Counted from the first letter of the stretch, positions 10,501 through 58,267 are shown. The stretch: DNA of 64,000 nucleotides from Oscillospiraceae bacterium (GCA_031552685.1 JAVBMI010000019.1:2771-66770); one strand, 5' to 3'. Translations and numbers: made by a program. Notes: generated by a model from the sequence alone, not told the origin.

Positions 10501-11087
10501 CTGTCCTGAAGGCGGGGGCTGTGCCTATTGCGTCGATCGTTACCGATTTTGCGCAGGAGGGCGGGCCGACGAACTATCAGGACGACCAGCTTGTGACCCT
10601 TGCGGGCGTGATTGAGCACTCAAAAACCAGAACCACGCGCAACAACTCGCTGATGGCGTATATCCAGCTGGAGGATACCTCCGGCACGATTGAGATGTTG
10701 GCGTTTCAGAAAATACTCGACATCAGCGGCGGATATATAAAAGAAGGAGCGGCGATTGTAGTCAAGGGCAGGATTTCCGCCCGTGATGAAAAAGAACCCC
10801 AGATAATGGTGGAGTCTCTGCGGCCGATCAGCGACAATGACGCAGAGGACATGCCGACTCCTGCCGAGCGGGCAGCCGTTAAAACACTCTGGCTGAAGCT
10901 GCCGGCACAATCAGATCCCAGACTGCAGAAGATAGAAAATCTGCTGCTCATGTTTCAGGGCGATGATAAGCTGATAATCTACATCGAAGATGAGAAAAAA
11001 CGTATCGGCACAACCTGCATGGTACATGATTCACTTCTGCGGGAGCTGAGGGAGCTTCTCGGTGTGGAAAATGTAGTTGTAAAATAA
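7596..11087 (+). CDS. dnaE: DNA polymerase III alpha subunit (DnaE type)
   Basis: The product is 1163 aa. The PHP domain starts FTHLHVHSEFSLLDGA, and polymerase core motifs (GRGSAAGS, MPDIDIDF) are present. Confidence 0.95.
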   Translation: MAFTHLHVHSEFSLLDGACRVKEMAAYAKELGQEALAITDHGVMYGAVAFFNACREAGIKPIIGCEVYIAPRGMEDKEYGADSNYSHLILLCKNETGYRNLCYLVSEGFTRGFYIKPRIDWQLLIEHAQGLICLSGCIAGEIQQKIINGDYNGAKNRALELAKVFGGDGFYLELQAHGINAEREAAEGLVRLHRETGIPLVLTNDAHYTKKQDARNQDVLMCVQMQKTLDDPDRMRFEGSEFYLKSEQEMRELLGEYPETQEAADNTRKIADMCDFSFEFGHYHLPKFPLPEGEERAAEYLKKLCEKGFQMRYGNNRQDTQKLREQLYYELDMIEKMGFTDYFLIVSDFIWYAKSNGIPVGPGRGSAAGSIVSYCLEITDVDPIKYSLFFERFLNPERISMPDIDIDFCVERRGEVIDYVNRKYGADHVAQIVTFGTMAARLAIRDVGRALGIGYAECDAVAKQIPFAIGITIEEALKLSRPLRDMYEGDERIRNLVDTARALEGMPRHASTHAAGVVITGKPVYEYVPLAKNDEAVVCQYPMTTLEELGLLKMDFLGLRNLTVLEKSQQLVRKKQPDFDIEKVPDDDKAVFEMISEGRTSGVFQLESAGMTGVCTGLKPKSIEDITAVIALYRPGPMESIPRFLACAVDPKKISYKHELLRPILDVTYGCIVYQEQVIEIFRRLAGFSLGQADMIRRAMSKKKEKEIKKERTAFIFGDPERKINGAVANGVPEKIAGSIYDEILDFANYAFNKAHAVSYAVISYRTAYMKCHYPREYMAALLSSVLDNTPKVAEYIAECRDCGIALLPPDINESEADFTVSGENIRFGLVAIKNIGRGFISALEENRSEQGPFTSFEDFCRRMHGRELNKRAVENLIRSGAFDSLGSKRSQLLRVSEQIIDGVSDAARKNVDGQLDLFSMGGGQKQSENSSVKLPDIPEFAVRELMTMEKETTGLYLSGHPMDEYRAAVLKAGAVPIASIVTDFAQEGGPTNYQDDQLVTLAGVIEHSKTRTTRNNSLMAYIQLEDTSGTIEMLAFQKILDISGGYIKEGAAIVVKGRISARDEKEPQIMVESLRPISDNDAEDMPTPAERAAVKTLWLKLPAQSDPRLQKIENLLLMFQGDDKLIIYIEDEKKRIGTTCMVHDSLLRELRELLGVENVVVK

Positions 11088-11098
11088 TAACGTTATTT

Positions 11099-11577
11099 CA
11101 AGCGTCCAACACTTGGGCAGGCGCGGGCACTACGTGCCCTGCTGCCCGTATAAGGGGGAACCGGTTCTTGCAAAGAAACGGTTCCCCCTTATGATCCCCT
11201 TGGCGAAGAAGCCCAAAGGGAGAACCCTTTGGAAACCCCTTAATGAACGCTTCGCTCTGTTCTCACGTGCCGCTCCGCGGACAGGTTCGCCGCTGCCTGC
11301 GGAGCGCGGCTGCATCATGCTACGGGCAACAAGTTGCGCCTGCACCAAAGCTAAGCGAGCGGTTCAGACGCGCAGTGGTAATCTGCCCTGTGGCACGGTA
11401 CGCAGTTAGCGAGCGGATGGTATTGCTTGCATTTGTGGGGAGGCAATATTTTCTTTAGGAGAGTCAAGAGAGGGCATTTATTTTTCTAAAAGAAAGCCCT
11501 CTTTTGCCCTGCGCGGGAAGCGCAAAATAATAAAAACGGGTTGCCCCCTGCGGGTAGCAGGTAAATAAATAAAAATA
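11099..11577 (+). repeat. Hairpin-rich mosaic intergenic element, copy 1
   Basis: The first ~125 nt are almost identical to 48499..48625. The core with two AGCGAGCG boxes and the 3' part also match copy 3. It contains a series of perfect or near-perfect hairpins. Confidence 0.85.
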
Positions 11578-11647
11578 TAGAATAATGTCAATTATCCACA
11601 GCCTCTGCCTTCACATATACTGTCTTATATAAAAAAAGGAGATGTGT

Positions 11648-12457
11648 ATGGAAGGGCTGTTCTCGGGCTGCGGATATACCGCGCAGGCCTTAATTGCTAC
11701 CCTGTTCACCTGGGGTGTGACAGCTCTCGGTGCGGCAGTAGTTGTTTTTTTCAAGAAAATCAACAAAACCGTTTTGGACGCCATGCTCAGTATTGCGGCA
11801 GGCGTTATGACCGCGGCTTGCTTCTGGTCCTTGCTTTCGCCGTCGCTTCAAATGGCGGAGAGTCTGGGCATAAACCCGTGGCTGACGGTGTGCGCGGGTT
11901 TTCTATCCGGCGGCCTGCTGATATATCTCGGTGAAAAGCTGCTTGGTTTTATCACAACGAGAAATGGCACCGGCGAAAAAACGCCCAACATGAGAAAAAA
12001 ACGCATTGTTATGCTGATTGTCTCTATCACGCTGCACAATATTCCGGAGGGCTTGGCTGTAGGCGTGGCTTTCGGCAGCATAGCTTACGGGCTGGAAGGG
12101 GCTGGAATATCTGCGGCAGTGCTTCTGGCGCTGGGAATCGGCATTCAGAATTTTCCGGAGGGTACGGCGGTCAGCGTTCCGCTGCGCCGCGAGGGAATGA
12201 GCCGAGGGAGGGCCTTTTTTTATGGACAGCTCAGCGGAGCTGTTGAACCCGTTGCCGGTGTTTTGGGCGCATTGCTCGTGCTGCATGTTCGTGCTCTTCT
12301 GCCTTTTTTTCTGGCCTTTGCCGCCGGAGCGATGCTTTATGTCGTTACGCAGGAGCTGATTCCCGAGAGCCAGACCAATCCGCGCCGCGGGCTTATGGCC
12401 TTGTTCACTGTTTTCGGGTTTGCTCTGATGATGGTGCTTGACGTTGCGCTTGGATAA
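11648..12457 (+). CDS. zupT: ZIP family metal (zinc) transporter
   Basis: Multi-TM protein with the HNIPEGLAVG and QNFPEGTAVS ZIP signatures. I preferred the ATG at 11648, 7 nt after AAGGAG. Confidence 0.85.
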   Translation: MEGLFSGCGYTAQALIATLFTWGVTALGAAVVVFFKKINKTVLDAMLSIAAGVMTAACFWSLLSPSLQMAESLGINPWLTVCAGFLSGGLLIYLGEKLLGFITTRNGTGEKTPNMRKKRIVMLIVSITLHNIPEGLAVGVAFGSIAYGLEGAGISAAVLLALGIGIQNFPEGTAVSVPLRREGMSRGRAFFYGQLSGAVEPVAGVLGALLVLHVRALLPFFLAFAAGAMLYVVTQELIPESQTNPRRGLMALFTVFGFALMMVLDVALG

Positions 12458-12486
12458 AAAAACCGCCAAAATGGCGGTTTTTTTTA
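12455..12486. terminator. Bidirectional terminator between zupT and the ECF operon
   Basis: The sequence is aaaaaaccgcca-aaa-tggcggtttttttt, flanked by A and T runs. Confidence 0.75.
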
Positions 12487-13029: not shown

Positions 13030-14892
13030 TTAAAAAATTAGAAAAAACGGCAGCATGGCCTCAAGAATGACCAAGATACTTATGAAATAGTACTGCCGTT
13101 CGCCTGTAAATCTCAGGCCGAAAATTATTGTCAGAGGTATCAGCGCAAGCAAAATCAGAGCACAGATAACAGACCTTGCCGAGGGTCTGCGAACGGGTGC
13201 TTTTGCTGCGTCCGGCGCCGGGGTCGGGTCATCGGAAAATCCGCCGAAATCTCCGTCAGTCGGAGAAGGGGGCGGCACAGCTCCGCAGGCGAGGATTATT
13301 TCATCTGCCGTTATAGCCAGCGGCAGAAGATCTGCAGCCATTCTTGCCGCGGCGGTAGTATAAAAACGCTTGTTTGAGAAAAAGGTGTGCGGCTCCGCCA
13401 CGCCAACAATCTCACCGTCGAAAAACATGGCGCAGCGGTCTGCGCAGACTGCGCAAAACTCCACGTCATGGCTGACCAGAACAACAGTCGTTCCGTTCTC
13501 GCACAATTGCTTCAAAAGTGCTGATAAACGGTGCTTGCTTGCGGCATCAAGTCCCTTTGTCGGTTCGTCCAGCAGCAGGATGTCGGGCTCAAGCAGCAGG
13601 AGCTTTGCCAAAGCCGCCGACTGCCGCTGTCCTCCGGACAGGTCAAAGGGGTGTCGCTCCAACAGTCCGTCAAGATCGCACAACTTTATTACTTCGCTCA
13701 GACGGCGCTCTTTCTCATGCTTTGGTATGCCGAGCGGCTCGAGAGTGTCACGCAAATCAGTATCAAGCGTGGAACGGGAAAAAAGCAGCAGCGGATCCTG
13801 CGGCATCAGGGCCGCTCTGCCGCTTTGTTCCACTCTGCCCCTCAAGGGCCGCAGGATTCCGGAAATGACCGACAGTGCGGTGGTTTTTCCGGCACCGTTA
13901 CCGCCGAGAATGGCGAAAATCTCGCCCTTGCGTATTTCGCAATTGACACCGCGCAGCACGTCCTCACCGCCGCGTTTATATCGATACCAGAGGTCGCGCA
14001 AAACGAGCGCGTTTTCATTTGCATTACTTTCGGTTTCAGATGCGTTCAGAGAAGAAAGCGTGTGCTTACTGGCATAGTTTTCCAGCCATGTACGTCCCTG
14101 GCGGACAGAAACCGGGCACACATCGTCATTTTCTACCGCCGACCAGACCCGCATAGCCGTGGGCATAGCAAAAAAACTGCCGCTGCCGTTTTGAAGAAGC
14201 TCCTGCGCCACTTCGAGGGCTGTGCCCCGGGCGAGAATTCCGCCGTTTTCCATGACTATTATACTGTCACAAAGAGAGAACAGCTCCTCACCGCGGTGCT
14301 CCGAGATTATCACAGTAGTACCCAGATCTTCGTTTATCCGCTTTAGCAGATGCAAAAATTCGGTAGCGGCAATCGGATCGAGCTGTCCCGTGGGTTCATC
14401 CAAAATAAGCAGCGAGGGGCGCATAACCATTGCGGATGCAAGGTTCAGAATTTGCTTTTGACCGCCGGAGAGCTCAGATACATTTTTCCTGAACCAAGGC
14501 TCAATACCAAAAAAGGAAGCCGTTTCCGCCACTCTCAGGCGTATTTCTTCTGAGGAAATTCCAAGACTCTCAAGCCCGAAGGCCAGCTCATGCCAAACCT
14601 TGTCTGTGACAATCTGGTTGTCTGGATCTTGGAAAACGAAGCCTATATTTTCAGCAGCTTCACGGTCGCTGAGAGCGGAGATTGGTTTTTCTTCGAAGAA
14701 GATTTCGCCCGCCGAAGTGCCGGAGGGCGAAATTTTAGGCTTGAGTAGCCGCAATAATGTGGTTTTTCCGCAGCCTGACGGGCCGCAGAGCGCGACGAAC
14801 TGTCCCTCGTCAACGGACAGGCTTACATCACGCAGCGCTGCAGCCGAATTAGGGTAACTGAAGCTCAGATTTTGAGTTCGGATTTTCTCCAT
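13030..14892 (-). CDS. ECF transporter duplicated ATPase (EcfA-EcfA' fusion) with a C-terminal transmembrane extension
   Basis: There are two ABC cassettes (GPSGCGKTT...LSGGQKQ...LILDEPT and GGNGAGKTT...LSGGQRQ...LLLDEPT). These are followed by a Pro-rich linker and two hydrophobic helices. Confidence 0.9.
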   Translation of the reverse strand: MEKIRTQNLSFSYPNSAAALRDVSLSVDEGQFVALCGPSGCGKTTLLRLLKPKISPSGTSAGEIFFEEKPISALSDREAAENIGFVFQDPDNQIVTDKVWHELAFGLESLGISSEEIRLRVAETASFFGIEPWFRKNVSELSGGQKQILNLASAMVMRPSLLILDEPTGQLDPIAATEFLHLLKRINEDLGTTVIISEHRGEELFSLCDSIIVMENGGILARGTALEVAQELLQNGSGSFFAMPTAMRVWSAVENDDVCPVSVRQGRTWLENYASKHTLSSLNASETESNANENALVLRDLWYRYKRGGEDVLRGVNCEIRKGEIFAILGGNGAGKTTALSVISGILRPLRGRVEQSGRAALMPQDPLLLFSRSTLDTDLRDTLEPLGIPKHEKERRLSEVIKLCDLDGLLERHPFDLSGGQRQSAALAKLLLLEPDILLLDEPTKGLDAASKHRLSALLKQLCENGTTVVLVSHDVEFCAVCADRCAMFFDGEIVGVAEPHTFFSNKRFYTTAAARMAADLLPLAITADEIILACGAVPPPSPTDGDFGGFSDDPTPAPDAAKAPVRRPSARSVICALILLALIPLTIIFGLRFTGERQYYFISILVILEAMLPFFLIF

Positions 14893-17589: not shown

Positions 17590-17795
17590 ATAACATAGCT
17601 GTCCGTCCCCGTACGACGCGGGGCGGACAAATAAAACGTGCAGGTCTTCTGACTCGCGTCCTTGAGGCGTCCTTTCCCTGCCTTCCCGATTTCTCAGTGA
17701 CCGGCTTTCACCGACGAGAGAGGACAAAACGCATACAGCGGCGGTACCGTCCGGGATTCTCACCCGATTCTCTATTCTCCGCCAAGGGCCATACG
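17590..17795 (-). promoter_or_regulatory. Cobalamin (B12) riboswitch
   Basis: The minus strand reads AATAGAGAATCGGGTGAGAATCCCGGACGGTACCGCCGCTGTA ... GGTGAAAGCCGGTCACTG ... GGGAAGGC ... GAGTCAGAAGACCTGC. This matches the conserved core and B12-box region of the cobalamin riboswitch class. It lies directly upstream of the DUF4430/ECF operon. Confidence 0.82.
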
Positions 17796-17814
17796 CCCGG
17801 GGCGGCACACATTT

Positions 17815-18942
17815 TTATTCGGTTTTATTGCCGGGATTAGTAGTCCGTCCTATACCATAGGGCTTGCGTACATGGACATATATTGAGATTATACCACTTA
17901 TTATAAACATTGTATAGAAATTAATAAATCGTGACAGCAGCATGCCCGGAAGAATCGATATCCCGAACAGCGGGCGCATTAGCAGCAAATAACCGCTCTC
18001 AGACGCACCGACGCTGCCCGGCAGCGGCATAAAGGAAACGGAAATATAGAGAACAGCGCTCACAGCGACAAAGTCAAACACGCTAAACTCGGAAAAGCCG
18101 AAGGATTTATAGACAAAATAAGGAACAAGGTGGTACAAAATCAGCTGCAGCATAGTTGCGCCCGTTATTGAAAAGAAGCGTTTGGGGCTCTCCCTGATAA
18201 GTGAAACCCCTGCCTTGACCTCGGATACATACTTGTCAAGTTCGCGCAGGGCCTTTTCCCGATTTTTGATGATTCGGATTTTTGCCAGCAGCTTGACTAC
18301 TCCCCGCAGCAGCTTGGTAAGGATTTTTTCGGAGAACATCACCCCCAGCAGGAGCAGTAGCATGAAAAAGTTGATGGCAAAACCAAAGAAAAACAGGATA
18401 AACAGATTTGGGTCAACGGAGGAGATATAGTTCCACTTAACAATAACCATGGAAAGACCCAAAACCACCACGGCGAGCTGATAGGTGATGTTTGTCACGA
18501 ACAAAATGAGCGTGGTTTTTGAATAGTGGATTCCATCACGCACCAAATAGAAAAACTGCATGGGCTGTCCGCCGGAGGAGGAGGGAGTTACACCGCTGTA
18601 AAAAAAGCCGAGAGCGGAATACTGCATCATCTCGCGAAAACGCAGGCGCAGCCGAATCCAGTTTGCCGCCATGCCGATGATGACGCCCTGAACAATAAGA
18701 CTCAGCAGCATTGAGAGAACCCCCGCTCCGATATAGGGCAGCCTGACCTCCTGCAAAACATTGAAAACATCAATGAGCGAGCGGTCTTTGAAAATTACAT
18801 AGAACGTTACAGCGATGAGCACGATCAGGAAAAGAAAGCTCAGCACATAGTTTCTGATTCGTTTTTTAGGAGGCTTTACAGCGACTTCCGGTTCGTCCGG
18901 AGGGGCGCCGTAGAGTTTTTCAGCTTTGATTTCTTCAGACAT
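17815..18942 (-). CDS. Flippase-like / lysylphosphatidylglycerol synthase TM-region family membrane protein (UPF0104)
   Basis: Polytopic membrane protein with a charged N-terminus (MSEEIKAEKLYGAPPDEPE) followed by about 8 TM helices. The start at 18942 has an AAGGAA RBS. Confidence 0.7.
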   Translation of the reverse strand: MSEEIKAEKLYGAPPDEPEVAVKPPKKRIRNYVLSFLFLIVLIAVTFYVIFKDRSLIDVFNVLQEVRLPYIGAGVLSMLLSLIVQGVIIGMAANWIRLRLRFREMMQYSALGFFYSGVTPSSSGGQPMQFFYLVRDGIHYSKTTLILFVTNITYQLAVVVLGLSMVIVKWNYISSVDPNLFILFFFGFAINFFMLLLLLGVMFSEKILTKLLRGVVKLLAKIRIIKNREKALRELDKYVSEVKAGVSLIRESPKRFFSITGATMLQLILYHLVPYFVYKSFGFSEFSVFDFVAVSAVLYISVSFMPLPGSVGASESGYLLLMRPLFGISILPGMLLSRFINFYTMFIISGIISIYVHVRKPYGIGRTTNPGNKTE

Positions 18943-25438: not shown

Positions 25439-26764
25439 TTAGCCGCAGGTGAAGGCGCTTTTGATATTCACCTTAAGCTGATCCTCTTTTGTAATCATCT
25501 CGCGGCCTCTCAAAAAGCGCTTGAGCGCTTGCGGCACAGCGACTGAGCCGTCTGCCTGCTGGTACTGCTCAACGATTGCGGGCAGGATGCGGCTGGTTGC
25601 CAGACCCGAGCCGTTGAGGGTGTGGACATACTCGATTTTGCCGTCCTCGCGGCGGTAACGGATGTTGCCGCGGCGCGCCTGATAGTCCCGAGCGTTGCTG
25701 ACGGAGGATACTTCCTTATAGCCGTTCATCGAGGGAATGTAAACTTCGATGTCGTATGTCCGCGCCATGGAGGCGGAGCAGTCGCCAGCAGCGAGCTTTA
25801 CTGTGCGGAATTTCAGACCGAGACCCTTCACAAGGCTTTCCGCGCGGACAACAAGCTCGTCAAAGGCTTCGTTCGACTGTTCCGGAGTAGTTACCTGGAA
25901 CATCTCGACCTTATTGAACTGATGACCCCGGATCATGCCGCGCTCATCAGAGCGGTAAGAGCCCGCTTCCCTTCTGTAACAAGGAGTGTAGGAAACATAC
26001 TTGCGCGGAAGCTCAGCCTCGGTAAGTATCTCATCGCGGTGCAGACTGGCAAGCGCGGTCTCAGCTGTGGGCAGCATGAAGTGACGGTTTTCTCCATCCT
26101 CGTCAACCCAATAAACCTCGTCCTTGAACTTTGGGAACTGCCCTGCGGTCAGACCGCAATCATAGCCCAGCATGTGCGGCACCATTACTATTTCATAGCC
26201 GTCCATCTCGTGAGTTTCGATGAAGTAATTGATTAGGGCCCACTCAAGGCGCGAACCCAGACCGCGGTATAGCCAGTAACCATTGCCGGAGAGCTTTGCG
26301 CCCCTCTCGTAGTCGATTATCCCCAGGCTTGTGCATAGGTCAACGTGGTTTTTTATTTCAAAATCGCGCTTAGAGCTGCCGCCATAGAAGCAGATCGGCT
26401 GGTTATTCTCTTTTCCGCCGGGCTTCAGGTCCGGATCGGGCAGATTCGGTAGAGAGAGCATGAGGTCGGTATATTCATCCTCAACAGACTTCAAATCAGC
26501 GTCAAAAGCCTTGATTTCTTCCTTCAGAGCATTCATGCGCTCGATGAGTGCCGAGACGTCCTTGCCCTCTTTCTTTAGCTGTGGTACATCCTTTGAGGCC
26601 CTGTTCTGCTCGCTTTTAGCGGCTTCGGTCTTTTGGATGAGCTCACGGCGCTGTGTGTCCAGCACCAAAATTCTGTCGACCGCGCTGTCGCAATCCACTT
26701 CCTTGGCCTTCAGGCGGGTTTTTACCTCATCCGGGTTCTCACGTATCAGTTTAATATCAAGCAT
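25439..26764 (-). CDS. serS: Serine--tRNA ligase
   Basis: MLDIKLIRENPDEVKTRLK gives a coiled-coil N-terminus. A class II core is present (TAGQFPKF, GSGLATSRILPAIVE). Confidence 0.95.
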   Translation of the reverse strand: MLDIKLIRENPDEVKTRLKAKEVDCDSAVDRILVLDTQRRELIQKTEAAKSEQNRASKDVPQLKKEGKDVSALIERMNALKEEIKAFDADLKSVEDEYTDLMLSLPNLPDPDLKPGGKENNQPICFYGGSSKRDFEIKNHVDLCTSLGIIDYERGAKLSGNGYWLYRGLGSRLEWALINYFIETHEMDGYEIVMVPHMLGYDCGLTAGQFPKFKDEVYWVDEDGENRHFMLPTAETALASLHRDEILTEAELPRKYVSYTPCYRREAGSYRSDERGMIRGHQFNKVEMFQVTTPEQSNEAFDELVVRAESLVKGLGLKFRTVKLAAGDCSASMARTYDIEVYIPSMNGYKEVSSVSNARDYQARRGNIRYRREDGKIEYVHTLNGSGLATSRILPAIVEQYQQADGSVAVPQALKRFLRGREMITKEDQLKVNIKSAFTCG

Positions 26765-26780
26765 TGTTATGCCTCCTCAG

Positions 26781-27674
26781 TTATTTATTCGTTCCAAAAC
26801 GCATCAGGGCGGATATCAGTAACTCGCGGTCATCCGCGCCGTAGTATTCCAGTTCGATTTTCCCCTTTTTGCGATTGTCCTTAATATGTACTTTTCGTCC
26901 GAGTGCGCGCTCAAGCTGCTTTTCCGCATCTGCGACATAGTCCACTTTTGTGTCAAGCTGTTTCTTCGCAGACGCTGAAACGCTTGATTTTTCAAGACTC
27001 TCAGCGATTCTCGCGGCCAGTTTCTCAAGCTGCCGAACTGATAATGCCTCCTGCGCCGCCTTTTGCGCTGTTTGCAGCTGCACAGCGCTGTCTTTGATTG
27101 CCAGCAGCGCCCGTGCGTGACCCGCCGAAAGCGTCCCATCCTCGACCATGGCGGCCACAGGCTCTGAGAGCGACAGCAAGCGCAGGGCGTTTGCGACTGC
27201 CGGCCTCGACTTTCCGACGCTCTGTGAAGCATCTTCCTGAGTCATGCCATACTCTTCCATGAGCGCACGGAAGCCTCTTGCTTCTTCAATCGGATTAAGA
27301 TCCTCTCTCTGCAGGTTTTCAACCAGCGCCAGCTCCATAGCACGTTTGTCGTCAGCCTCCAAAAGCCGCACCGGAACTGTGTTCAGACCCACAAGCCTCG
27401 CTGCACGCCAGCGCCGCTCGCCTGCGATAATCTGGTAATAACCGCCATCCAGTTTCCTCACTGTTATGGGGGAAATAATGCCAAACTGCGAGATGGAATC
27501 AGCAAGCTCCTGCAAGGCCTCCGGGTCGAAAGCCTTTCTCGGCTGGTCACTTCGCGGTTCAACTTTTTCAATCGGGACATTGAGTGCGCCGTCCAGCTCG
27601 TTTCCGATGCCGGTTTCACCGAAAAGTGCCCCCAGACCTGCGCCAAGCCCTCTTTTCTGTTGTTTTTCGGCCAT
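26781..27674 (-). CDS. parB: Chromosome partitioning protein ParB (Spo0J)
   Basis: KRGLGAGLGALF...PRKAFDPEALQELADSISQFGIISPITVR...IIAGERRWRAA is the ParB box pattern. The ATG at 27674 follows GAGGAGG. Confidence 0.92.
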   Translation of the reverse strand: MAEKQQKRGLGAGLGALFGETGIGNELDGALNVPIEKVEPRSDQPRKAFDPEALQELADSISQFGIISPITVRKLDGGYYQIIAGERRWRAARLVGLNTVPVRLLEADDKRAMELALVENLQREDLNPIEEARGFRALMEEYGMTQEDASQSVGKSRPAVANALRLLSLSEPVAAMVEDGTLSAGHARALLAIKDSAVQLQTAQKAAQEALSVRQLEKLAARIAESLEKSSVSASAKKQLDTKVDYVADAEKQLERALGRKVHIKDNRKKGKIELEYYGADDRELLISALMRFGTNK

Positions 27675-27710
27675 TTTGACCTCCTCGGCTCCTGAACGGA
27701 GCATTTTTCT

Positions 27711-28469
27711 TTATGTAGTCTGACGCTTCAGGAATTCACTTGCGAAGCGCAGATATGCTCTGGTACCCTTTGAATACTTGTCATACACGATAACCGGCTT
27801 GCCGTGGCTCGGCGCCTCGCTGATACGGACGTTGCGCGGAATCTGCGTTGTATAAACCTTAGCGCCGAAGTATTGACGAATCTCCGACTCGACCTCAACC
27901 GAGAGGTTTGTTCTGGAGTCATACATTGTAAGGAGGATTCCTTCCAGATAAAGCTCGGTATTTAACTGCTTGTTAACGTTTTTCAGAGTGCCCATCAAAT
28001 CGGTCAGCCCTTCGAGCGCAAAGTATTCGCACTGTACGGGCACAAGAATGCTGTCCGCCGCGCACAGGGCATTGAGAGTGAGCAATTCCAGTGAAGGCGG
28101 GCAGTCAATGAAGATGAAATCATAGTTATTAGTTACGGGCTCAAGCGCCTGCTTCAGCACATACTCGCGCTCACTCGCACCAACCAGCTCAATGAGTGCA
28201 CCGGACAGCTCACGATTGGACGGGAGCACATCGCCGTATTTTGTTTTTACAATAGCGGCCTCGGCCATCACGCCGTTCATCAGGACATCATATGTACTCG
28301 GGCCGGCCATCTTATCAACGCCCATGCCCGAAGTACTGTTCCCCTGCGGGTCGCAGTCACAAAGCAGCACCCTTTTGTTCCTGGACTTCAGAGCACAACA
28401 GAGATTGATGCAGGTCGTGGACTTGCCCACGCCACCTTTTTGATTGACTACCGCAACGGTTTTGCCCAT
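27711..28469 (-). CDS. parA: Chromosome partitioning ATPase ParA (Soj)
   Basis: MGKTVAVVNQKGGVGKSTTCINL carries the deviant Walker A motif. Confidence 0.92.
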   Translation of the reverse strand: MGKTVAVVNQKGGVGKSTTCINLCCALKSRNKRVLLCDCDPQGNSTSGMGVDKMAGPSTYDVLMNGVMAEAAIVKTKYGDVLPSNRELSGALIELVGASEREYVLKQALEPVTNNYDFIFIDCPPSLELLTLNALCAADSILVPVQCEYFALEGLTDLMGTLKNVNKQLNTELYLEGILLTMYDSRTNLSVEVESEIRQYFGAKVYTTQIPRNVRISEAPSHGKPVIVYDKYSKGTRAYLRFASEFLKRQTT

Positions 28470-28590
28470 GCCAATTCTCCCACCGGCGCTCATCTTTAAT
28501 ATAACGCCAAAAATGTTGTAGGGTCATTATAGCATCAACAGAAGGGCAATTCAACGATTTTAGGCAATAATATCGCAAACGCGTGAAAAA

Positions 28591-28606
28591 TGTTTCACGT
28601 GAAACA
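28591..28606. other. parS centromere-like site
   Basis: TGTTTCACGTGAAACA is a perfect palindrome matching the Firmicute parS consensus TGTTNCACGTGAAACA. It lies about 120 nt upstream of parA. Confidence 0.85.
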
Positions 28607-28613
28607 TTTCTGT

Positions 28614-29504
28614 CTAGCCCAGCATCATGTCTACATCCTCAATAGTCATGCCTCTATGAAGCGCAAGATTAATGGAATAGCCGACAAGACGCCCGATGCA
28701 GCTAACCTGTGAGTCGATGCTTCTGGGCGTAACAATCATCTCCTCATTGTTGGCAAGTTCCTCAGGAGCTTTTTCCATTCCAAAATCCGAAAAGAGAGTG
28801 CGCATATCAACAACAGTGGGCACGCCTATCGCAACCACCGGCACACCCATGGTTTCAGAGTTGATAAGACTTCTGCCGTTGCCGACGCCGGAGCCAGGGA
28901 TGATGCCTGTGTCCGTAAGCTGCACGGTGCGGCAGAGCCTGTCAATATTACGCGCGGCAAGAGCGTCGACGGCTATCACACAATCAGGATTCAGCAAATC
29001 GCATATACATTTAATGTAGTCCGCGCTCTCGATTCCGCTTGTGCCCAGTACGCCGGGAGTGACAACGGACACATCGCGGAATGCCTGAAAATCTTCCGGC
29101 ATAAAGCGCTTTAGGTGGCGGGTGACAAGAGTGGCCTCCACAGCCAGCGGGCCAACAGAGTCCGGAGTTATTTGCCGGTTGCCAAGTCCGGCGACCAGAA
29201 CGCAGAATTCCTCCCTGTCCTTAGGGAGAAAACCCTTTATCAGTTCGGTGACTGCGGTGACCGCCTTTGGAAACTCCTCAGTCTCGCGGCGAAGAACCGG
29301 CTCGATTTGGATTGTGCAGTATCGCCCCTTCGGCTTGCCCAAAGCGTTCGCGCCCTCGTCGTTCATAATTTCCATAATATGGTAGCCAACACCGTCAATC
29401 TCGTCCTCTTTGTAGTCTACTCCCGGGATTTCTCCGCCAAGACCTTCACGGACGAGCTCTCTGGCCTCCATCACAAGGTCTGTTCGAGGCATCTTCTTTT
29501 CCAT
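28614..29504 (-). CDS. gpr: Germination protease GPR (spore endopeptidase)
   Basis: MPRTDLVMEARELV...GKPKGRYCTIQ and the C-terminal GVPVVAIGVPTVVD are typical of GPR. Confidence 0.85.
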   Translation of the reverse strand: MEKKMPRTDLVMEARELVREGLGGEIPGVDYKEDEIDGVGYHIMEIMNDEGANALGKPKGRYCTIQIEPVLRRETEEFPKAVTAVTELIKGFLPKDREEFCVLVAGLGNRQITPDSVGPLAVEATLVTRHLKRFMPEDFQAFRDVSVVTPGVLGTSGIESADYIKCICDLLNPDCVIAVDALAARNIDRLCRTVQLTDTGIIPGSGVGNGRSLINSETMGVPVVAIGVPTVVDMRTLFSDFGMEKAPEELANNEEMIVTPRSIDSQVSCIGRLVGYSINLALHRGMTIEDVDMMLG

Positions 29505-29634
29505 ATGTTGTGTATCCTTTCGAAATGTGCATAATGAAATACAATATATAGTGGATAAGTTGTTTTGCACACATTCTTTATAGTAATAAGATACCCACTT
29601 TTTACACGATTTCTTCAAAATAATAAAAAAAGTC

Positions 29635-29663
29635 TTGCAAAATCAAAAAATGAATGGTAGAAT
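29635..29663 (+). promoter_or_regulatory. Putative sigma-A promoter of rpsT
   Basis: TTGCAA, a 17-nt spacer and TAGAAT. Confidence 0.5.
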
Positions 29664-29726
29664 TAAAATCCGCGGAACATGGCAGAGCGCCGGTTCGGCA
29701 ATTATATAGGAGGAGGTGGCAAGAGT

Positions 29727-29990
29727 ATGCCCAACATCAAGTCTTCAGCCAAGAGAGATGCTCTTCAGAAGGCGCAGAACGCTAAGAACAGAGCGGCAAA
29801 AACCCTGCTCAAAACCAATATTAAGAAGTTTGATGCAGCCGTTGCCGAGGGCGACCGCGACACAGCCGTCAATGCCTATAAGGTTGCTGTTAAGTCTGTT
29901 GATCACGCTGCGACCAAGCATCTTATCCATAAGAATGCCGCAGCGCACAAGAAGTCTCAGCTGACAAACAAGCTCAATAGCATTGCATAA
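29727..29990 (+). CDS. rpsT: 30S ribosomal protein S20
   Basis: MPNIKSSAKRDALQKAQNAKNRAAKTLLKT. AGGAGGAGG RBS. Confidence 0.95.
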   Translation: MPNIKSSAKRDALQKAQNAKNRAAKTLLKTNIKKFDAAVAEGDRDTAVNAYKVAVKSVDHAATKHLIHKNAAAHKKSQLTNKLNSIA

Positions 29991-36901: not shown

Positions 36902-38404
36902 TTATGCCCCGACGATTTTGTTAATGCCGTTGACGTATGCCCTTATTGAAGACTCAATAATGTCGGTGGACAGGCCGCGCCCTGTGTATTCCTCACCCTT
37001 ATAGCTGAGCTTGACAACCGCCTCGCCCATTGCGTCTTCTCCGTCGGTTACCGCGTTAAGACTAAAGCTGTCAAGATTGGCGTCAATGCCCGACATCATA
37101 TCGACAGCCTTGAAAGAAGCGTCAATCGGGCCGGAACCGATGGCGACCTCCTCGCGGATGCCGTCCTCCGTTTTCAGCTTGATGCAAGCTATGTTGGTGG
37201 TGTCCTTGCCGGTTGTGACCACATGGCTGAGCAGCTCGAACGTTGCCTCTACAGTGTGGGTGTTGGCGAAGGTCAGCGCCACGATGTCCTTGTCAGTCAA
37301 GCTCTTTTTCTTGTCCGCAAGAGCCTTGAAGCGCACGAAAATCTCGTCCAGCTCCTCTTTAGTGACCTCGTAACCGAGCTGGCTCAGACGGTCGCGCAGA
37401 GCGTGTTTACCGCTGTGCTTGCCCAGAACCATGGTGTTTTGAGGTATGCCCACGTCCGTGGACTTCATGATTTCGTAAGTCAGGGGGTTGGCGATAACTC
37501 CGTGCTGATGAATGCCGCTTTCGTGGGCGAAGGCATTTGCGCCGACTATCGACTTATTGGGAGAGACGGGCACACCGGTGATATTTGAGAGCAGCTTGCA
37601 GGATTTGTAAATCTGCGTAGTATTAACGCCGGTTTCCGCCTGATAGTACTCGCCGCGGGTTTTCAGGGTCATAACGATTTCTTCGAGACTGGCGTTGCCC
37701 GCGCGCTCACCAATGCCGTTTACCGTACATTCAACCTGAGTCGCTCCGGCAAGAACACAGGCAAGGGAGTTTGCCACTGCCATGCCGAGGTCATCGTGAC
37801 AGTGTGAGGAAATATCCACATTCTCGATGCCCGGTGTGTGCTCACGCAGGTAGCTTATCAGCTCGAACATCTCCATGGGTGTGGAATAGCCTACCGTGTC
37901 GGGAATGTTCAGAGTGGTTGCGCCGGCTTTTATCGCCGTTTCGCAGCAACGGCTCATGAATTCCCTGTCGCTGCGGGAGGCGTCCTCGCAGGAGAATTCA
38001 ACATCGTTGCAGAGGGATTTTGCGTAGGAAACGTGGGTGTTTATGCTCTCCAGAACCTGTTCGCGGCTCATTTTCAGCTTATATTCCATGTGTATATCAC
38101 TTGTTGCCAGAAAGATGTGAATGCGCGGGTACTTCGCGCCCTTCACGGCGTTCCAGGCGGCGTCAATATCACCCTTTGTGCAGCGGGCAAGACTGGCGAC
38201 CGTGCAGTTTTGTACAGTCTGGGATATGGCTTCAACGGCCTTGAAGTCGTCCGGGGATGCGATTGCGAAACCGGCTTCGATAATGTCAACGCCGAGAGCG
38301 TCAAGCTGCCGTGCCATCTCCAGTTTTTCGGAGAGGTTCATGCTGCAGCCAGGAGACTGCTCACCGTCACGCAGCGTTGTATCGAAGACCTTAATTTTTC
38401 TCAT
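36902..38404 (-). CDS. leuA: 2-isopropylmalate synthase
   Basis: [19 protein letters not shown]...[13 protein letters not shown]. The product is 500 aa with a LeuA dimerisation/regulatory C-terminus. Confidence 0.93.
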
Positions 38405-38516: not shown

Positions 38517-38785
38517 TAAAAAAATAAGCCCCGTCTCATATAAGAGACGAAGCATAAACTCCGCGGTACCACTCAAATTGACAGATAAACTGTCCGCTTT
38601 CGGCGTCTTAAAACGCCGCCTCTTTGATAACGGTGAGGAAATCCGGTCACACCTACTGCCATGGGCTTTCAGCTGACTGCTCAAGGGTGAGTTCGCAACT
38701 TTTTCGCATACCGTTTCGCACCGCACAACGGCTCTCTGAAATGCTCGGAAGCTGCTTTGTCCCTGTCACTGCATTTGTGTTATTG
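38517..38785 (-). promoter_or_regulatory. T-box leader, probable Leu specifier (CUC)
   Basis: The minus strand has AGAGA in stem I, a specifier loop GAA-CUC-A (CUC at 38691..38689) and the T-box sequence AATTTGAGTGGTACCGCGGAG. The terminator is gcttcgtctc/gagacggggc plus a U-run. It lies upstream of leuA. Confidence 0.85.
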
Positions 38786-38820: not shown

Positions 38821-38922
38821 GGAAAAGTTTCTTCTCGTTATTCCAAACGACTTGCATCCCCCCGGCGGGGACAGGCTCTTTTTAAATGCAACGGGTTGAG
38901 GTGAGGTTTTCAAGCGCACAAC

Positions 38923-38955
38923 GCTTGGGCGACAGCGGGAGCTACGCTCCCTGCC
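38923..38955 (+). repeat. Left arm of the perfect 33-nt inverted repeat of copy 2
   Basis: gcttgggcgacagcgggagctacgctccctgcc is the exact reverse complement of 39398..39430. Confidence 0.95.
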
Positions 38956-39397
38956 TTTCCACGTCAAAACCATTTTACTCGCGCTAAGAGCCGCGCTTCG
39001 CGCGGTTGCGCTCTGTACAGCGCTGCGGCGCTAGTCTTTTTGATGTCGTCAAAAAGAGAAACCGTTTTAACAATTCGAAAGAGAAAAACCGCCTGGGGGC
39101 GTTTCGAGTCGCCCCCAGACCCCCTAACGACCAAAAGGGGGCTGACACCGCCCCCCTTGGATCCCCCTTGTGGCGAGGGACGAAAGTTTTCGTCTGTGCC
39201 GCAGAGCAGCGAGCGATTATGTGGCGCAGTGCTCACCTGCCCTGTGGCACGCTCCGCAGTCAGCGAGCGGACGGTTTGCTTGTTCTAATGGCTTCGGCGG
39301 GGGTTTCCAAAGGGGTTACGCCCCTTTGGGCTTCTTTTCTTTGGAGTGAAGAGGGATTTCTTTTCTCGCAAGAAAAGAAACCTCTCTTCAAAGGGGC

Positions 39398-39430
39398 GGC
39401 AGGGAGCGTAGCTCCCGCTGTCGCCCAAGC
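39398..39430 (-). repeat. Right arm of the perfect 33-nt inverted repeat of copy 2
   Basis: ggcagggagcgtagctcccgctgtcgcccaagc is the exact reverse complement of 38923..38955. Confidence 0.95.
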
Positions 39431-39464
39431 ATTGGAGATTGCTGAGTTTCAATCAAGAACCCTC

Positions 39465-39493
39465 TTGTAACAAGCCCAAAATCTTGGTATACT
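39465..39493 (+). promoter_or_regulatory. Putative sigma-A promoter of the DUF815 ATPase gene
   Basis: TTGTAA, a 17-nt spacer and TATACT. Confidence 0.45.
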
Positions 39494-39525
39494 GGATAAG
39501 CAGAACACCCGAAAGGAGCCCCGCT

Positions 39526-40767: not shown

Positions 40768-40789
40768 GTGTCTAATCCAGATTTTAAAT

Positions 40790-41080
40790 GCGTTGATGGG
40801 AAAAAGTAGGCCGATACCCACTTCAGAGAGCTGCCGGTCGGTGCAAGGCGGTGTGGAGGTCGGAGGAAAGTCATCCCGGAGCGGTTTGCCGAAGGGCCGG
40901 TCACGCCTGTCTGTGTAAGCAAAACGGTTGCGCCCGTTACAGCGCAGGACGTTGACAGACGTTCAAAGTGGTTTTTTCAATGGCAGTGCAGCGCCGGAGA
41001 AAGAGCAATAAGAGTGGTACCGCAGGGGTATTTTGCCTTTGTCTCTTGATTTATGAATTAGAGACATGGGCGTTTTTTGT
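40790..41080 (+). promoter_or_regulatory. T-box leader, probable Val specifier (GUC)
   Basis: It has AGAGAGC in stem I, a specifier loop GAAA-GUC-A (GUC at 40870..40872) and the T-box sequence AATAAGAGTGGTACCGCAGGGG. The terminator is tgtctct/agagaca plus tttttt. It lies upstream of ilvB. Confidence 0.8.
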
Positions 41081-41116: not shown

Positions 41117-42781
41117 TTGAAATTATCAGGAGCGGAAATCATCATTGAGGTTCTTATAGAGCAGGGAGTTACCGATGTTTTCGGTTATCCTGGCGGAGCG
41201 GCGCTCAATATATATGAGGCGCTTTATCACAGACAGGACAAAATTAAGCATTATCTTACCGCCCACGAGCAGGGAGCGACCCATGCGGCGGACGGTTATG
41301 CCCGCACAACAGGGAAAACGGGCGTCATGTTCGCGACCAGCGGCCCGGGCGCAACCAACACCGTCACCGGCATTGCAACGGCGTACCTGGACAGCATTCC
41401 GATGGTGGTAATCACCGCCAACGTCGCTCAGGATCTGATAGGAAAAGACAGCTTCCAGGAGGTTTTTATCGCCGGAATCACCCAGCCTGTCACCAAGCAC
41501 AACTATGCTGTGCGCGACATTACCAGACTGGCGGAAACCATCCGCGAGGCCTTCAAAATTGCTGCCAGCGGCCGCTGTGGCCCTGTGCTGATAGATGTTC
41601 CGAAGGATATAACCGCCGCAGTGTATGAATTTACTCCCGCTCCCAAGTACGAAAAACCGACGCCGAAGGCTGCCTCCGATGAGGAGCACAGCAAAATTGC
41701 GGCTCTGATAAAAAAAGCGAAGCGTCCTGTTATCTGCTTCGGCGGCGGTGTGATAAGCGCCAACGCCGGGGATGAGATGAGGGAATTTATCAAAAAGACA
41801 CGCATCCCCGCCTGCCGCACAATAATGGGTACAGGCGTTATCGGCTTCGGTGACGATTTGGATTTGGGTATTCTGGGTATGCACGGTTCGATGGCGGCGA
41901 ACCACGCCGTTGATGAAGCCGACCTGCTTCTGGCTCTTGGAACCCGCTTTTCTGACCGCGTTGCCACCAAGCTGCGCGATTTCGCGCCCCACGCGACCAT
42001 CGTTCAGATAGACATTGACGAGAGCGAAATACGCAAGAACGTCATGGTGGATTTGGCGGTCGTGGGCGATTTGAAGGCGGAGCTTCCCGCCCTGCTTGAG
42101 ATCGTTGAAAACGCCGAGCGCGCGGCCTGGCTTGAACAGGTCAGGAACTGGCAGGAAATGGACAGCAGAATCAACCGTCAGGAGACAGGTCACATCCGCC
42201 CGGTGGAAATTATGGACGTTATCGGCAGCGTTTGCGGCAGGGATGCCATAATTGCTACGGACGTAGGCCAGCATCAGATGTGGGCCTCCCAGTTCTGCAA
42301 GGAAACAGCTCCCAGAGGCTTTTTGACCTCCGGCGGACTGGGTACCATGGGCTTTGGCTACGGCGCGGCAATAGGCGCACAGGTTGCCAGACCCGAAAAG
42401 AGAGTTATCCACATCACCAGCGACGGCAGCTTCCACATGAACATGAACGAAGCCTGCACCGCAGTGACCTACGAACTGCCGGTTATCACAGTTATTTTTG
42501 ACAATCAGGTGCTTGGCATGGTATACCAGTGGCAGACGAGTTTTTACAACAAGCACTATTTCTCAACCGTTGCAGAGCGCAAAACGGATTATATTAAAGT
42601 TGCGGAGGGCTTTGGAGCCAAAGGTTTCAGAGCTGAGACGAAGGCGGAATTCGAAACCGTCCTCAAGGAAGCACTTGCAACCGGCAAGCCGTGCTGGATC
42701 GTTTGCCCCATCGACAGAAACGAGCGCGTGCTGCCAATGATCGCGGGCGGAGAGACGGTTCGCGCCGCAATTCTGGAATAA
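41117..42781 (+). CDS. ilvB: Acetolactate synthase large subunit (biosynthetic type)
   Basis: MKLSGAEIIIEVLIEQGVTDVFGYPGGAAL and the ThDP motif GGLGTMGFGYGAAIGA. It has a TTG start after AGGAGGAG. Confidence 0.92.
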   Translation: MKLSGAEIIIEVLIEQGVTDVFGYPGGAALNIYEALYHRQDKIKHYLTAHEQGATHAADGYARTTGKTGVMFATSGPGATNTVTGIATAYLDSIPMVVITANVAQDLIGKDSFQEVFIAGITQPVTKHNYAVRDITRLAETIREAFKIAASGRCGPVLIDVPKDITAAVYEFTPAPKYEKPTPKAASDEEHSKIAALIKKAKRPVICFGGGVISANAGDEMREFIKKTRIPACRTIMGTGVIGFGDDLDLGILGMHGSMAANHAVDEADLLLALGTRFSDRVATKLRDFAPHATIVQIDIDESEIRKNVMVDLAVVGDLKAELPALLEIVENAERAAWLEQVRNWQEMDSRINRQETGHIRPVEIMDVIGSVCGRDAIIATDVGQHQMWASQFCKETAPRGFLTSGGLGTMGFGYGAAIGAQVARPEKRVIHITSDGSFHMNMNEACTAVTYELPVITVIFDNQVLGMVYQWQTSFYNKHYFSTVAERKTDYIKVAEGFGAKGFRAETKAEFETVLKEALATGKPCWIVCPIDRNERVLPMIAGGETVRAAILE

Positions 42782-48312: not shown

Positions 48313-48440
48313 AGTATTTACCTCCCTTTTTGACAAGGTCACAAAACAGCCGTCTGCGCGAAACGGCTGTTTTCGTTTGTAAATAGTATGCGGTTCTCGG
48401 ACGAGGTATGCCCTGAACGGAATAATTACATTATTGCAAA

Positions 48441-49012
48441 TGTCCCCCCGTGGGGACTGGCTTTTTCCAACACGCTGAGTTGAGGGCTACATTATTCCAA
48501 CGTCCAACGTTGGGGCAGGCGCGGGCACTATGTGCCCTGCTGCCCGTATAAGGGGGAACCGGTTCTTGCAAAGAAACGGTTCCCCCTTATGATCCCCTTG
48601 GCGAAGAAGCCCAAAGGGGTGCAACCCCTTTGGAAACCCCAAGTAGACGCTCGCGTGGGCTCGCTCTGCATGCGGCCGCCGCAAGCGGCGGATATCCCCG
48701 CCGCTGCCTGCGGAGCGCGGCTACTGCAAGCGTCGGGCAACAAGTTGCGCCACCACCGAATCTAAGCGAGCGATTATGTGGCGCAGTGCTAATCTGCCCT
48801 GTGGCACGGTTGGCAGTTAGCGAGCGGATGGGTTGCTTGTATTTGTGGCGATGTTATATTTTCTTTGGGAGAGTCAAGAGAGGGCATTTCTTTTTTAAAG
48901 AATGCCCTCTTTTGCCCTGCGCGGGAAGCGCAAAATAATTAAAAATGTGTTGCTCCCTGCGGGTAGCAGGTAATATATAAAAATGGGTTACCCCCTGCAT
49001 GGGGGGACTTTT
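48441..49012 (+). repeat. Hairpin-rich mosaic intergenic element, copy 3
   Basis: The core 48499..48985 is co-linear with copy 1. The 5' leader hairpin (tccccccgtgggga plus T-run) matches the 5' leader of copy 2. The 3' end module is duplicated. Confidence 0.85.
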
Positions 49013-49024
49013 GGAATAATATCG

Positions 49025-54378: not shown

Positions 54379-54434
54379 GTATAATCTCCGTGTCTTTATA
54401 CGTTGACGCAATTTTTTTGAGAGGAGTGCCTTTT

Positions 54435-56423: not shown

Positions 56424-56441
56424 ATAAATGAGGTTTGCGCT

Positions 56442-56891
56442 ATGAAAGTAATTTTCTTGACCGATGTAAAAGGACAGGGCAAAAAAGACGAATTGAAAGA
56501 GGTTTCCGACGGCTACGCCAGAAACTATCTGATACCTAAAAAAATGGCACTTGAGGCGACCACAGACGCGCTTAACAAGCTTAAGCTCCAGGAAAAGGCC
56601 CGTCTTGCGCAGCTTGCCAAGGACAAGGCCCTCGCAGAAGAAATCAATAAGCAGCTTGAGGCAATTGTGGTCAAAGTACCTGCGAAAGGCGGAGAGGGCG
56701 GAAAGCTGTTCGGCTCAGTTACCTCCAAGGAGATAAGCGATGCGCTGAATGAACAGTTCGGTATAGCGGTTGACAAAAACAAAATTGTTCAGTCAGAGCC
56801 GATAAAGACCTTTGGCACGCACGAGGTAAAGTGTAAGCTTGGATTCGAAATTTCAGGTACAATCAACGTAATAGTAACCGAAGAAAAATAA
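56442..56891 (+). CDS. rplI: 50S ribosomal protein L9
   Basis: [34 protein letters not shown]. Confidence 0.95.
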
Positions 56892-56914
56892 CTCTCCCAA
56901 ACAAGGAGAAAGAT

Positions 56915-58267
56915 ATGAACGAGCTTTTTGAGCAAAAAGTACCCCATAGCTCTGAGGCGGAGCAGGCTGTTCTGGGCTCAATGCTCATTGACAGCGACTG
57001 CATTCCGGACGTTCTCCAGAAGGCGAGGAGTGAGGACTTCTTCCTTGAGAGCAACAGGGATATTTTCGAAACGATTTTTAATATGTACTCATACGGACGC
57101 ACGGTGGATCCCATCACGGTGCTGGATCAAATGCGCGTCCGCGGCGTTTCGCGGGATAATTCTCAGGCTTACCTGATGGAGCTCATGCAGGTAACGCCGA
57201 CCGCCGCAAACGTGCTCAAATATGTGGATATCCTGCGTGAAATGTCATTGCTGCGCGGCCTTTCCGCCGTGGGACGCGACATTACCGAGATGGTTTCCGA
57301 GGGCACCGGTCAGGCGGACGCCATGTTGGAGGCCGCTGAGAGAAAGATCTATTCCCTGCGCCAGGGCAGAACCATCGGCGGGCTGATGAAAATCGCAAAT
57401 GTTGTTCAGGACGTATATGAGCAGATTTCCCGCATCAGCATGGAGGGCAACCCGATTCCGGGCCTTTCCACCGGACTGACTGATCTTGACAGCAAGATAC
57501 TGGGTCTGAACAAGGGCGACCTTATCATTATCGCTTCCCGCCCCGGCATGGGAAAAACAAGTATTGCGCTGAACATGTCCATGCACGTGGCAAAGAACTA
57601 TGACAAGTCGGTCGCCATTTTCTCACTGGAAATGGCCAGAGAGCAGCTTGCGATAAGGCTGCTTTCCGCCGAGAGCTTTGTAGACAGCAAAAAGCTGCTC
57701 ACAGGCAGGCTTTCAAACCGCGATTGGGAGGAGCTCGGAAAGGCGGCCTCTACCATAAGTGAAACCGGCATCCTTATAGATGACAACCCCACACTGACGG
57801 TTGCGGAGATGAACTCCCAATGCCGCAGGCTCAACAATCTCGGCCTCGTGGTAATTGACTATCTCCAGCTCATGCAATCCTCCGGCAGCGGCAAGAGCTA
57901 CTCCGGAGAAAACCGCCAGCAGGCTGTCAGCGACATGAGCCGCATGCTCAAAGTTATGGCGAAAGAACTCAATGTGCCAGTAATCTGCCTGTCACAGCTC
58001 TCACGAGCAGCGGAAGGGCGGAAGGAAAATAAAAGGCCAATGCTCTCAGACCTGCGCGAATCGGGTGCTATCGAGCAGGACGCAGACATCGTCATCGGCC
58101 TTTTCAGAGAAGGCTACTATGACGAGGAGTGCGTCAACCCGAACGCCGCAGAGGCGATAGTACTGAAGAACCGCCACGGTGAGCCCGGAACGGTAAATCT
58201 CATCTGGCAGGCGGAATACACCCGCTATGTTTCGGCGGATAAGAGACACGATGAAGAAGATTATTGA
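56915..58267 (+). CDS. dnaB: Replicative DNA helicase (DnaB family)
   Basis: PHSSEAEQAVLGSMLID...GDLIIIASRPGMGKTS...RESGAIEQDAD. Confidence 0.95.
   Translation: MNELFEQKVPHSSEAEQAVLGSMLIDSDCIPDVLQKARSEDFFLESNRDIFETIFNMYSYGRTVDPITVLDQMRVRGVSRDNSQAYLMELMQVTPTAANVLKYVDILREMSLLRGLSAVGRDITEMVSEGTGQADAMLEAAERKIYSLRQGRTIGGLMKIANVVQDVYEQISRISMEGNPIPGLSTGLTDLDSKILGLNKGDLIIIASRPGMGKTSIALNMSMHVAKNYDKSVAIFSLEMAREQLAIRLLSAESFVDSKKLLTGRLSNRDWEELGKAASTISETGILIDDNPTLTVAEMNSQCRRLNNLGLVVIDYLQLMQSSGSGKSYSGENRQQAVSDMSRMLKVMAKELNVPVICLSQLSRAAEGRKENKRPMLSDLRESGAIEQDADIVIGLFREGYYDEECVNPNAAEAIVLKNRHGEPGTVNLIWQAEYTRYVSADKRHDEEDY

Follow-up and report, generated by a model that had tools for sequence, protein, structure and literature searches.

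A repeated, hairpin-rich intergenic element with a conserved core in an Oscillospiraceae bacterium, possibly a lineage-specific mosaic repeat family

The window analyzed here, a stretch of 64,000 nucleotides from an Oscillospiraceae bacterium, belongs to a sparsely sampled lineage of spore-forming Clostridia. Its scanned ORFs are all housekeeping and origin-proximal (parA/parB, dnaB, rplI, serS, dnaE, leu/ilv), and no transposase, recombinase or RAYT gene was found among them. The origin-proximal genes include those at 25439-29990 and 54390-59630 (serS, parB, parA, gpr, rpsT; gdpP, rplI, dnaB, tilS), around which the plus strand has a net positive GC skew. A cobalamin riboswitch (17622-17822, minus strand, 75.5 bits) lies upstream of a DUF4430 / CbiQ / ABC-ECF transporter cluster, and two T-box leaders precede leuA (leader 38540-38778, minus, 115 bits; gene 36902-38404, minus) and an ilvB-type acetolactate synthase gene (leader 40784-41049, plus, 113 bits; gene 41117-42781). 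An in-frame stop at 13030-13032 splits a minus-strand gene into ORFs of 620 and 171 aa. In the Logan assembly of the same organism (SRR23967709), position 13031 is C and not A, resulting in one 802-aa ABC-ABC-ECF S-component fusion, and a T-run just downstream of the gene (about 12478-12485) is one base shorter. The discrepancy reflects an assembly error, or else a genuine polymorphism or pseudogene. The spacer between dnaE and zupT is filled by the element under study (copy 1; 11092-11586, plus strand), delimited by BLASTN and by alignment to a second, similar copy (copy 3).

A BLASTN search with 11051-11650 matched 48489-48984 at 83.9% identity over 502 columns (E 2e-149), bearing out the sequence-only reading that the dnaE-zupT spacer element recurs elsewhere in the window. 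The two copies match over about 500 nt (11090-11576 against 48489-48984). The same query gave an additional match of 76 nt at 39208-39282, within a third, rearranged copy (copy 2, 38837-39436). The conserved core of the element (11354-11429 in copy 1, plus strand) was detected by nhmmer exactly three times in the window, with E-values of 1e-35 to 1e-38, and comparison of the whole window with itself revealed no second dispersed repeat family. Copies are 486-600 bp long, and those in the window occupy its three largest inter-ORF gaps once leader sequence and ORF-picking artefacts are set aside. Their contexts are indeed unrelated, as had been proposed: copy 1 follows dnaE, copy 2 separates the leuA T-box leader from a DUF815 ATPase gene, and copy 3 lies between yabP and a gene of unknown kind. 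The coordinates first given for the family required adjustment, since copies 2 and 3 reach about 85 nt further left (module X) and copy 3 runs to 49020. Together with two copies on other NCBI contigs, known here solely from translations of spurious ORFs, at least five copies are documented. The three in the window fold far better than dinucleotide shuffles (z = -5.8, -11.4 and -11.5), and the description of the element as genuinely repeated, non-coding, hairpin-rich and intergenic is supported.

Copy 1 has an arm of type A on its left and one of type B on its right, with short end motifs GTTATTTCAA and ATAGAATAAT. Its first strong structure is HP1 (11115-11147), a nested hairpin (GGGCAG-GCGC-GGGCAC-TAC-GTGCCC-TG-CTGCCC) that has its homologue in the inverted-repeat hairpin of copy 2; between these two copies, two pairs of the inner stem and one pair of the outer stem are altered on both sides. 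HP-A (11150-11192) follows, with 20-nt arms that are 95% complementary, and is the nearly perfect long stem noticed earlier. Copy 2 has a hairpin with another stem sequence at the homologous place. The first 125 nt or so had been described as identical in copies 1 and 3. This is true of 11115-11212, which are 99% identical with TAC/TAT in the HP1 loop as the sole difference, but not of the approximately 20 nt at 11092-11114, where identity is just 70%. HP-B (11213-11232; CCAAAGGG-AGAA-CCCTTTGG) is 73% identical between the two copies and has a stem lengthened on both arms in copy 3 (48611-48633), exactly as reported; in copy 2 it is inverted and located after the core (39307-39329). The strongly diverged middle section was likewise recovered, as a variable segment (11233-11323) that includes hairpin HP-C (11271-11306) and is 51% identical to copy 3 over 11233-11286. 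Directly 5' of the core lies HP-D (11324-11340; GGGCAAC-AA-GTTGCGCC), a small hairpin identical in copy 3 and replaced in copy 2 by a different one, GACGAAA-GT-TTTCGTC.

The conserved core proposed from sequence is present and is 87% identical between copies 1 and 3. It is followed by a linker, TTTTCTTTAGGAGAG, and by hairpin HP-T (11465-11506; linker and hairpin together 11449-11506, plus strand), in which six pairs are altered on both sides in copy 2. HP-T is 88% and the tail 92% identical between copies 1 and 3. The suggested agagggc...gccctct hairpin therefore exists, being HP-T itself, and its role as a terminator is weak: the stem is followed by TTTTG, with only three to four U residues, and fails a standard terminator scan. 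It is the sole hairpin with a following U-run between dnaE and zupT. The tail (11504-11578, plus strand) belongs to arm type B and consists of two loosely similar units of about 38 nt, each a GC hairpin of 4-5 bp with a GGGNA loop and an A/T-rich spacer. An offset similarity of 75.5% was seen between 11504-11551 and 48950-48998. We rejected a tandem-repeat interpretation of the tail, as TRF gave no score and the offset similarity is just 75%.

Copy 2 (38837-39436, plus strand) has an arm of type A at both ends and lies between the leuA T-box leader (minus strand), which it directly adjoins, and the DUF815 ATPase gene (plus strand, ATG at 39526). It begins with module X (38837-38910, plus strand), composed of GTTATTCCAAA, a C6-N4-G5 hairpin, a T-run and GTTGAGG, which aligns with 48430-48490 of copy 3. 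Inward of this module lies the left member (38919-38955, containing GGGAGC-TAC-GCTCCC) of a 37-nt inverted repeat, absent from the earlier description, that is 97% complementary to its right member at 39398-39434. HP-D and the core occupy 39179-39282 on the plus strand (39179-39194 and 39208-39282, respectively), and the interior of the right arm (39296-39396) holds the inverted HP-B, a linker and HP-T (39347-39390). In reverse complement, the right arm corresponds to the left arm found in copies 1 and 3 (11105-11239 against 39436-39300, minus strand; 67% over 140 nt, E 1e-8). In a relative with a 69% identical DUF815 protein, a 67-aa HTH_26 gene (L011, 56-259) lies 11 nt upstream of the DUF815 ATPase gene. 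A remnant of such a gene was sought in the window at about 39440-39525 and no trace was found; repeat copy 2 occupies the upstream region instead.

Copy 3 (48430-49020, plus strand) consists of module X (48430-48490), a body (48491-48985) with the core at 48765-48839 and HP-T at 48875-48914 (both plus strand), and an inverted partial X (48986-49020). Its outer inverted repeat, 48430-48452 with 48998-49020, is 87% matched. The right end of copies 1 and 3 is formed by the two GC-hairpin and A/T-rich-spacer units of about 38 nt, and these copies carry no terminal inverted repeat beyond a pair of 9-10 nt, RTTATTYCAA / TWGAATAAT. A related motif, RTTATTNCAA, occurs seven times in the window against 0.89 expected (plus strand at 11092, 33880, 38779, 38837, 48430 and 48491; minus strand at 49011-49020), and six of these sites are at repeat-module boundaries. 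Module X of copy 3 is bracketed by two of them, which form a 9/10 direct repeat. The motif may represent element ends, a preferred target or a -35-like TTGCAA.

The general order of the family is thus HP1, HP-A, linker GATCCCCTTGGCGA, HP-B and the variable segment (in copies 1 and 3 only), HP-D, core, linker TTTTCTTTRGGAG, HP-T and right end. Local alignments on both strands show that the modules are collinear across copies, but that arms are swapped or inverted between them. HP-D, the core of about 80 nt, linker TTTTCTTTRGGAG and HP-T form the constant center of every copy, and the arms are of two types, A (HP1, HP-A, HP-B) and B (HP-T with small-hairpin/AATAAT units). Either orientation is seen for modules X, u1-u3, HP-B and HP1, which are heterogeneous and few. 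At homologous positions (HP1, HP-A/HP-T, HP-D) the stem sequence changes and pairing is kept. Stems of 18-20 bp are nearly perfect, and such palindromes fold equally well on both strands; a count by eye of mismatches in the arm sequences, about five G.T against three A.C, indicates no strand bias.

Two copies outside the window came to light through the open frame of the core. A profile of the core-frame peptide, searched against 1.84 billion representative proteins, retrieved two ORFs only, both hypothetical proteins present only at NCBI: P0246 (151 aa, on a contig of 91,654 bp, E 3e-17) and P0247 (87 aa, on a contig of 13,680 bp, E 1.5e-6). Read from its N-terminus, P0246 translates the reverse complement of tail and HP-T, a variable segment like that of copy 3, the core, HP-T and the tail, which implies that this copy has an inverted B arm at both ends. 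P0247 has diverged further but has core, linker and HP-T in register with P0246. Both translate further copies of the non-coding repeat and are probably annotation artefacts. A concatenated six-frame translation of copies 1 and 2 searched against 5.8 billion proteins gave no match among the 8000 candidates scored; this search missed P0246 and so is no valid negative, probably because scoring was limited to the 8000 candidates with the most words in common with the query.

The family appears restricted to one lineage. The nearest sampled relatives (DnaE 77% and ZupT 74% identical) keep the order whiA-dnaE-zupT-ABC, and in four independent assemblies their dnaE-zupT spacer is 110 nt long, with one canonical terminator and no element. 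This agrees with the view that the element is not a leader of its neighbors. The only empty site seen is thus at about genus distance, at 74-77% protein identity. No repeat copy was found by BLASTN or nhmmer in about 70 kb of the relatives' DNA, and none in plasmid and phage collections. More distant homologues of the DUF815 protein (49-55% identical) are labelled Oscillospiraceae, Ruminococcaceae, Clostridiales or Clostridia. Exact-pattern scans with the core hit GTDB representative genomes and JGI metagenomes once each, by chance and within coding sequence, and viral contigs not at all; these scans needed 20-22 exact bases and are blind to diverged relatives, and the genome of the window itself evidently lies outside the genome collection. 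Sequence from two samples of this organism is identical to the window upstream of dnaE, but the contigs concerned stop short of any repeat copy. Logan contigs of this organism break at 11502 and, inside the right inverted repeat of copy 2, at 39401, because copies 1 and 3 have 31-mers in common and because of that inverted repeat; these breaks carry no information on further copies. A literature search for the core and hairpin strings returned nothing relevant.

No known family matches by sequence, and by architecture the element most resembles the species-specific mosaic intergenic repeats. Within these, its closest analogues in build are BOX/RUP/SPRITE and REP/BIME. Pneumococcal BOX, RUP and SPRITE are nearly species-specific, modular and transcribed with their neighbors; spurious ORFs arise on both strands of their large copies, a BOX element is reported next to T-box leaders, and BOX has no known dedicated transposase (Croucher et al., 2011; PMC3049150). 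The family described here resembles BOX in being modular, intergenic, non-coding, extensively structured and lineage-restricted, with pairing terminal modules and variable internal ones, a likeness that we take as one of architecture and not of homology. Sequence similarity was neither found nor expected, and the host belongs to another class of Firmicutes. Moreover, the present family has a non-palindromic invariant core of about 80 nt and two interchangeable arm types, and five documented copies compared with more than 100 for BOX. REP units are 20-40 nt long, number more than 100 per genome, lie beside a RAYT gene, and in REP/BIME form are proposed to terminate transcription or to bind proteins (Nunvar et al., 2010; PMC2817692). 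They resemble our element in forming a species-specific intergenic mosaic of short GC-rich palindromes, and their alternating orientation and conserved linkers may have a counterpart in the few, heterogeneous modules that recur here in both orientations, but the present hairpins have stems of up to 20 bp, there is a long unique core, and the window holds no RAYT.

Comparison with prokaryotic MITEs (Delihas, 2011, PMC3184786; reviewed in PMC10969869) is less straightforward. The copies are short (below about 600 bp), lack coding capacity, and are intergenic with long stem-loops, a 37-nt inverted repeat in copy 2 and an empty site in relatives. On the other hand, inspection of the boundaries of the three window copies revealed no target-site duplication, and there is no known parent IS. 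Terminal inverted repeats common to all copies are lacking; the one long repeat is confined to copy 2 and lies inside the outermost boundary, with module X beyond it. The center is constant and the ends differ between copies. The sequence-only reading had held that empty sites with target-site duplications in relatives would make the element a plain MITE. The site is empty and points to a mobile or mosaic repeat, but with no target-site duplication the fit to a plain MITE is poor. Large structured RNAs such as OLE, ROOL, GOLLD and raiA are also of 0.3-0.6 kb, rich in hairpins and intergenic. Unlike them, the present repeat has no Rfam match at any threshold, shows no covariation, is not kept across taxa, and varies in module order and orientation between copies.

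Taking this evidence together, our preferred explanation, to which we give a probability of about one half, is that the element belongs to a lineage-specific, non-autonomous, non-coding mosaic family of foldback repeats of the BOX / BIME / MITE kind. Lineage restriction, a site empty in relatives, exclusively intergenic location, long near-perfect stems, mismatches without strand bias and the lack of any coding or RNA identity make this a better fit than an RNA gene. Complete elements might carry one arm type inverted at both ends, either A...A' as in copy 2 or B'...B as in P0246, and would owe their copying into intergenic DNA to a trans-acting enzyme. Exchange at the common center, by homologous recombination or gene conversion, could then have produced A...B chimeras such as copies 1 and 3, which would also account for the 99% identity of their left 100 nt. 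Once inserted, an element would be co-transcribed with its neighbors, its stems providing, as a side effect, 3'-end, terminator or processing structures. Repetition, modular anatomy, lack of coding capacity and of an Rfam match, and the empty orthologous site in relatives are direct observations; mobility, exchange between copies and any effect on transcripts are inferred. Several points speak against the mosaic-repeat explanation. Copies 1 and 3 have a common derived right end and no long terminal inverted repeat, and so were copied without one. Target-site duplications are missing, the scanned ORFs of the window include no transposase, recombinase or RAYT gene, no autonomous partner came to light, and the only empty site is that of a relative at about genus distance, with no presence/absence polymorphism seen among strains. 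The core is the most conserved part while the ends vary, the reverse of a classical MITE defined by its terminal inverted repeats, and the near-invariance of an unstructured core of about 80 nt in five copies is not accounted for by the mosaic-repeat model.

The core is 76-88 nt long, has the same orientation in all copies, and contains an invariant block, GCGCAGTG.T.A.CTGCCCTGTGGCACG, which is also conserved in the translated copies P0246 and P0247. It is conceivable, though unlikely, that the family is a multi-copy small-RNA or cis-acting RNA module, with HP-D, core, linker and HP-T (about 170-190 nt) as a functional transcript in which the unpaired 80-nt core between two hairpins offers a surface for a protein or for mRNAs, the arms being accessory or parasitic. 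No parts other than core, linker and HP-T occur in all five copies, and their relative orientation is constant, all three window cores lie on the G-rich and probably leading plus strand, the flanking hairpins change in sequence and keep their pairing, and UUUUG follows HP-T in copies 1 and 3. In all three window copies the segment from core to HP-T also folds 14-16 kcal/mol better on the plus strand; this advantage is, however, compositional (G+U-rich), because the core alone has z-scores near zero (+0.6, -2.3 and -1.2), no better than shuffles on either strand. The minimum-energy folds of the three cores differ from one another, and no compensatory changes were found in the core, a weak covariation test with three DNA sequences only.

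Other observations count against a transcript of its own as well. HP-T of copy 2 lacks a U-run, and scans recovered no conserved sigma-70-type promoter and no conserved canonical terminator among the copies. A sigma-54 or sigma-70 promoter within the core was considered and rejected, as the motif spacing misfits on inspection and the scan shows nothing conserved. The Rfam 15 gathering-threshold scan of the whole window detected only the two T-boxes and the cobalamin riboswitch, in keeping with the initial statement that no known RNA family is represented, and permissive scans of all three copies returned sub-threshold hairpin noise only. The module is absent from the same locus and from the 70 kb of relatives' DNA. 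Hence the initial leaning toward a new structured RNA gene lacks positive support, given the missing conserved promoter and canonical terminator, a core with neither structure nor covariation, and no copy outside the lineage.

A broader formulation, which we regard as rather unlikely, is that the family is defined by its center and not by its ends, the core being either a multi-copy regulatory RNA or protein-docking module or the internal site recognized by the mobilizing enzyme of a new kind of non-autonomous element with interchangeable foldback arms. More doubtful still is a DNA-level cassette, in which the core would be recognized by a site-specific recombinase, an HUH/Y1 enzyme or a nucleoid protein, and copy 2, lying between divergent genes, might behave as an inverton (invertible segment). 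Conservation of the core without structure and its two occurrences of AGCGAGCG, directly repeated 54 nt apart, would suit such a role, as would the perfect-type inverted repeats of copy 2, which are 442 nt apart between divergently transcribed genes, and the TAC loop of HP1, which is kept while the stem changes, as hairpin-recognizing enzymes would need. Yet the window encodes no recombinase or transposase, flanking inverted repeats of similar length are missing from copies 1 and 3, a promoter-like site belonging to the DUF815 gene lies outside the repeat, and no inverted-orientation assembly variant was seen in the one Logan contig end inspected.

The sequence-only reading had further stated that ORF frames are not conserved between copies, which holds just after the core, where the frame is broken by a 1-nt indel between copies 1 and 3 and by stops in copies 1 and 2 (an indel or stop in 3/5 copies overall), but not through the core, where one frame is open in every copy. 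That this frame (...AV(V/L)(I/T)CPVAR.AVSER...) is translated as a small protein family is most improbable: NCBI annotation did call ORFs in it twice, but the protein-library search favors copies in which it is open, no conserved start codon, ribosome-binding site or Pfam match was found, differences between copies 3 and 2 are split evenly between second and third codon positions (0/5/5 for positions 1/2/3), and the peptides are Cys/Arg-rich, as translated GC-rich non-coding DNA would be. A type I toxin-antitoxin system of the LDR / hok / Sib type was also discarded, as no conserved hydrophobic ORF preceded by an SD sequence exists on either strand of any copy.

If the mosaic foldback-repeat explanation is true, this family would be another species-specific intergenic repeat, of use for annotation, assembly and strain typing. 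At least two spurious ORFs (P0246 and P0247) have been called by NCBI in other copies, short-read contigs break within copies, and copy positions could serve as strain markers in an uncultured Oscillospiraceae-like lineage. If instead the core is a functional RNA or a recognition site, the family would be one held together by an internal sequence with exchangeable arms, an arrangement that is non-standard for MITEs.
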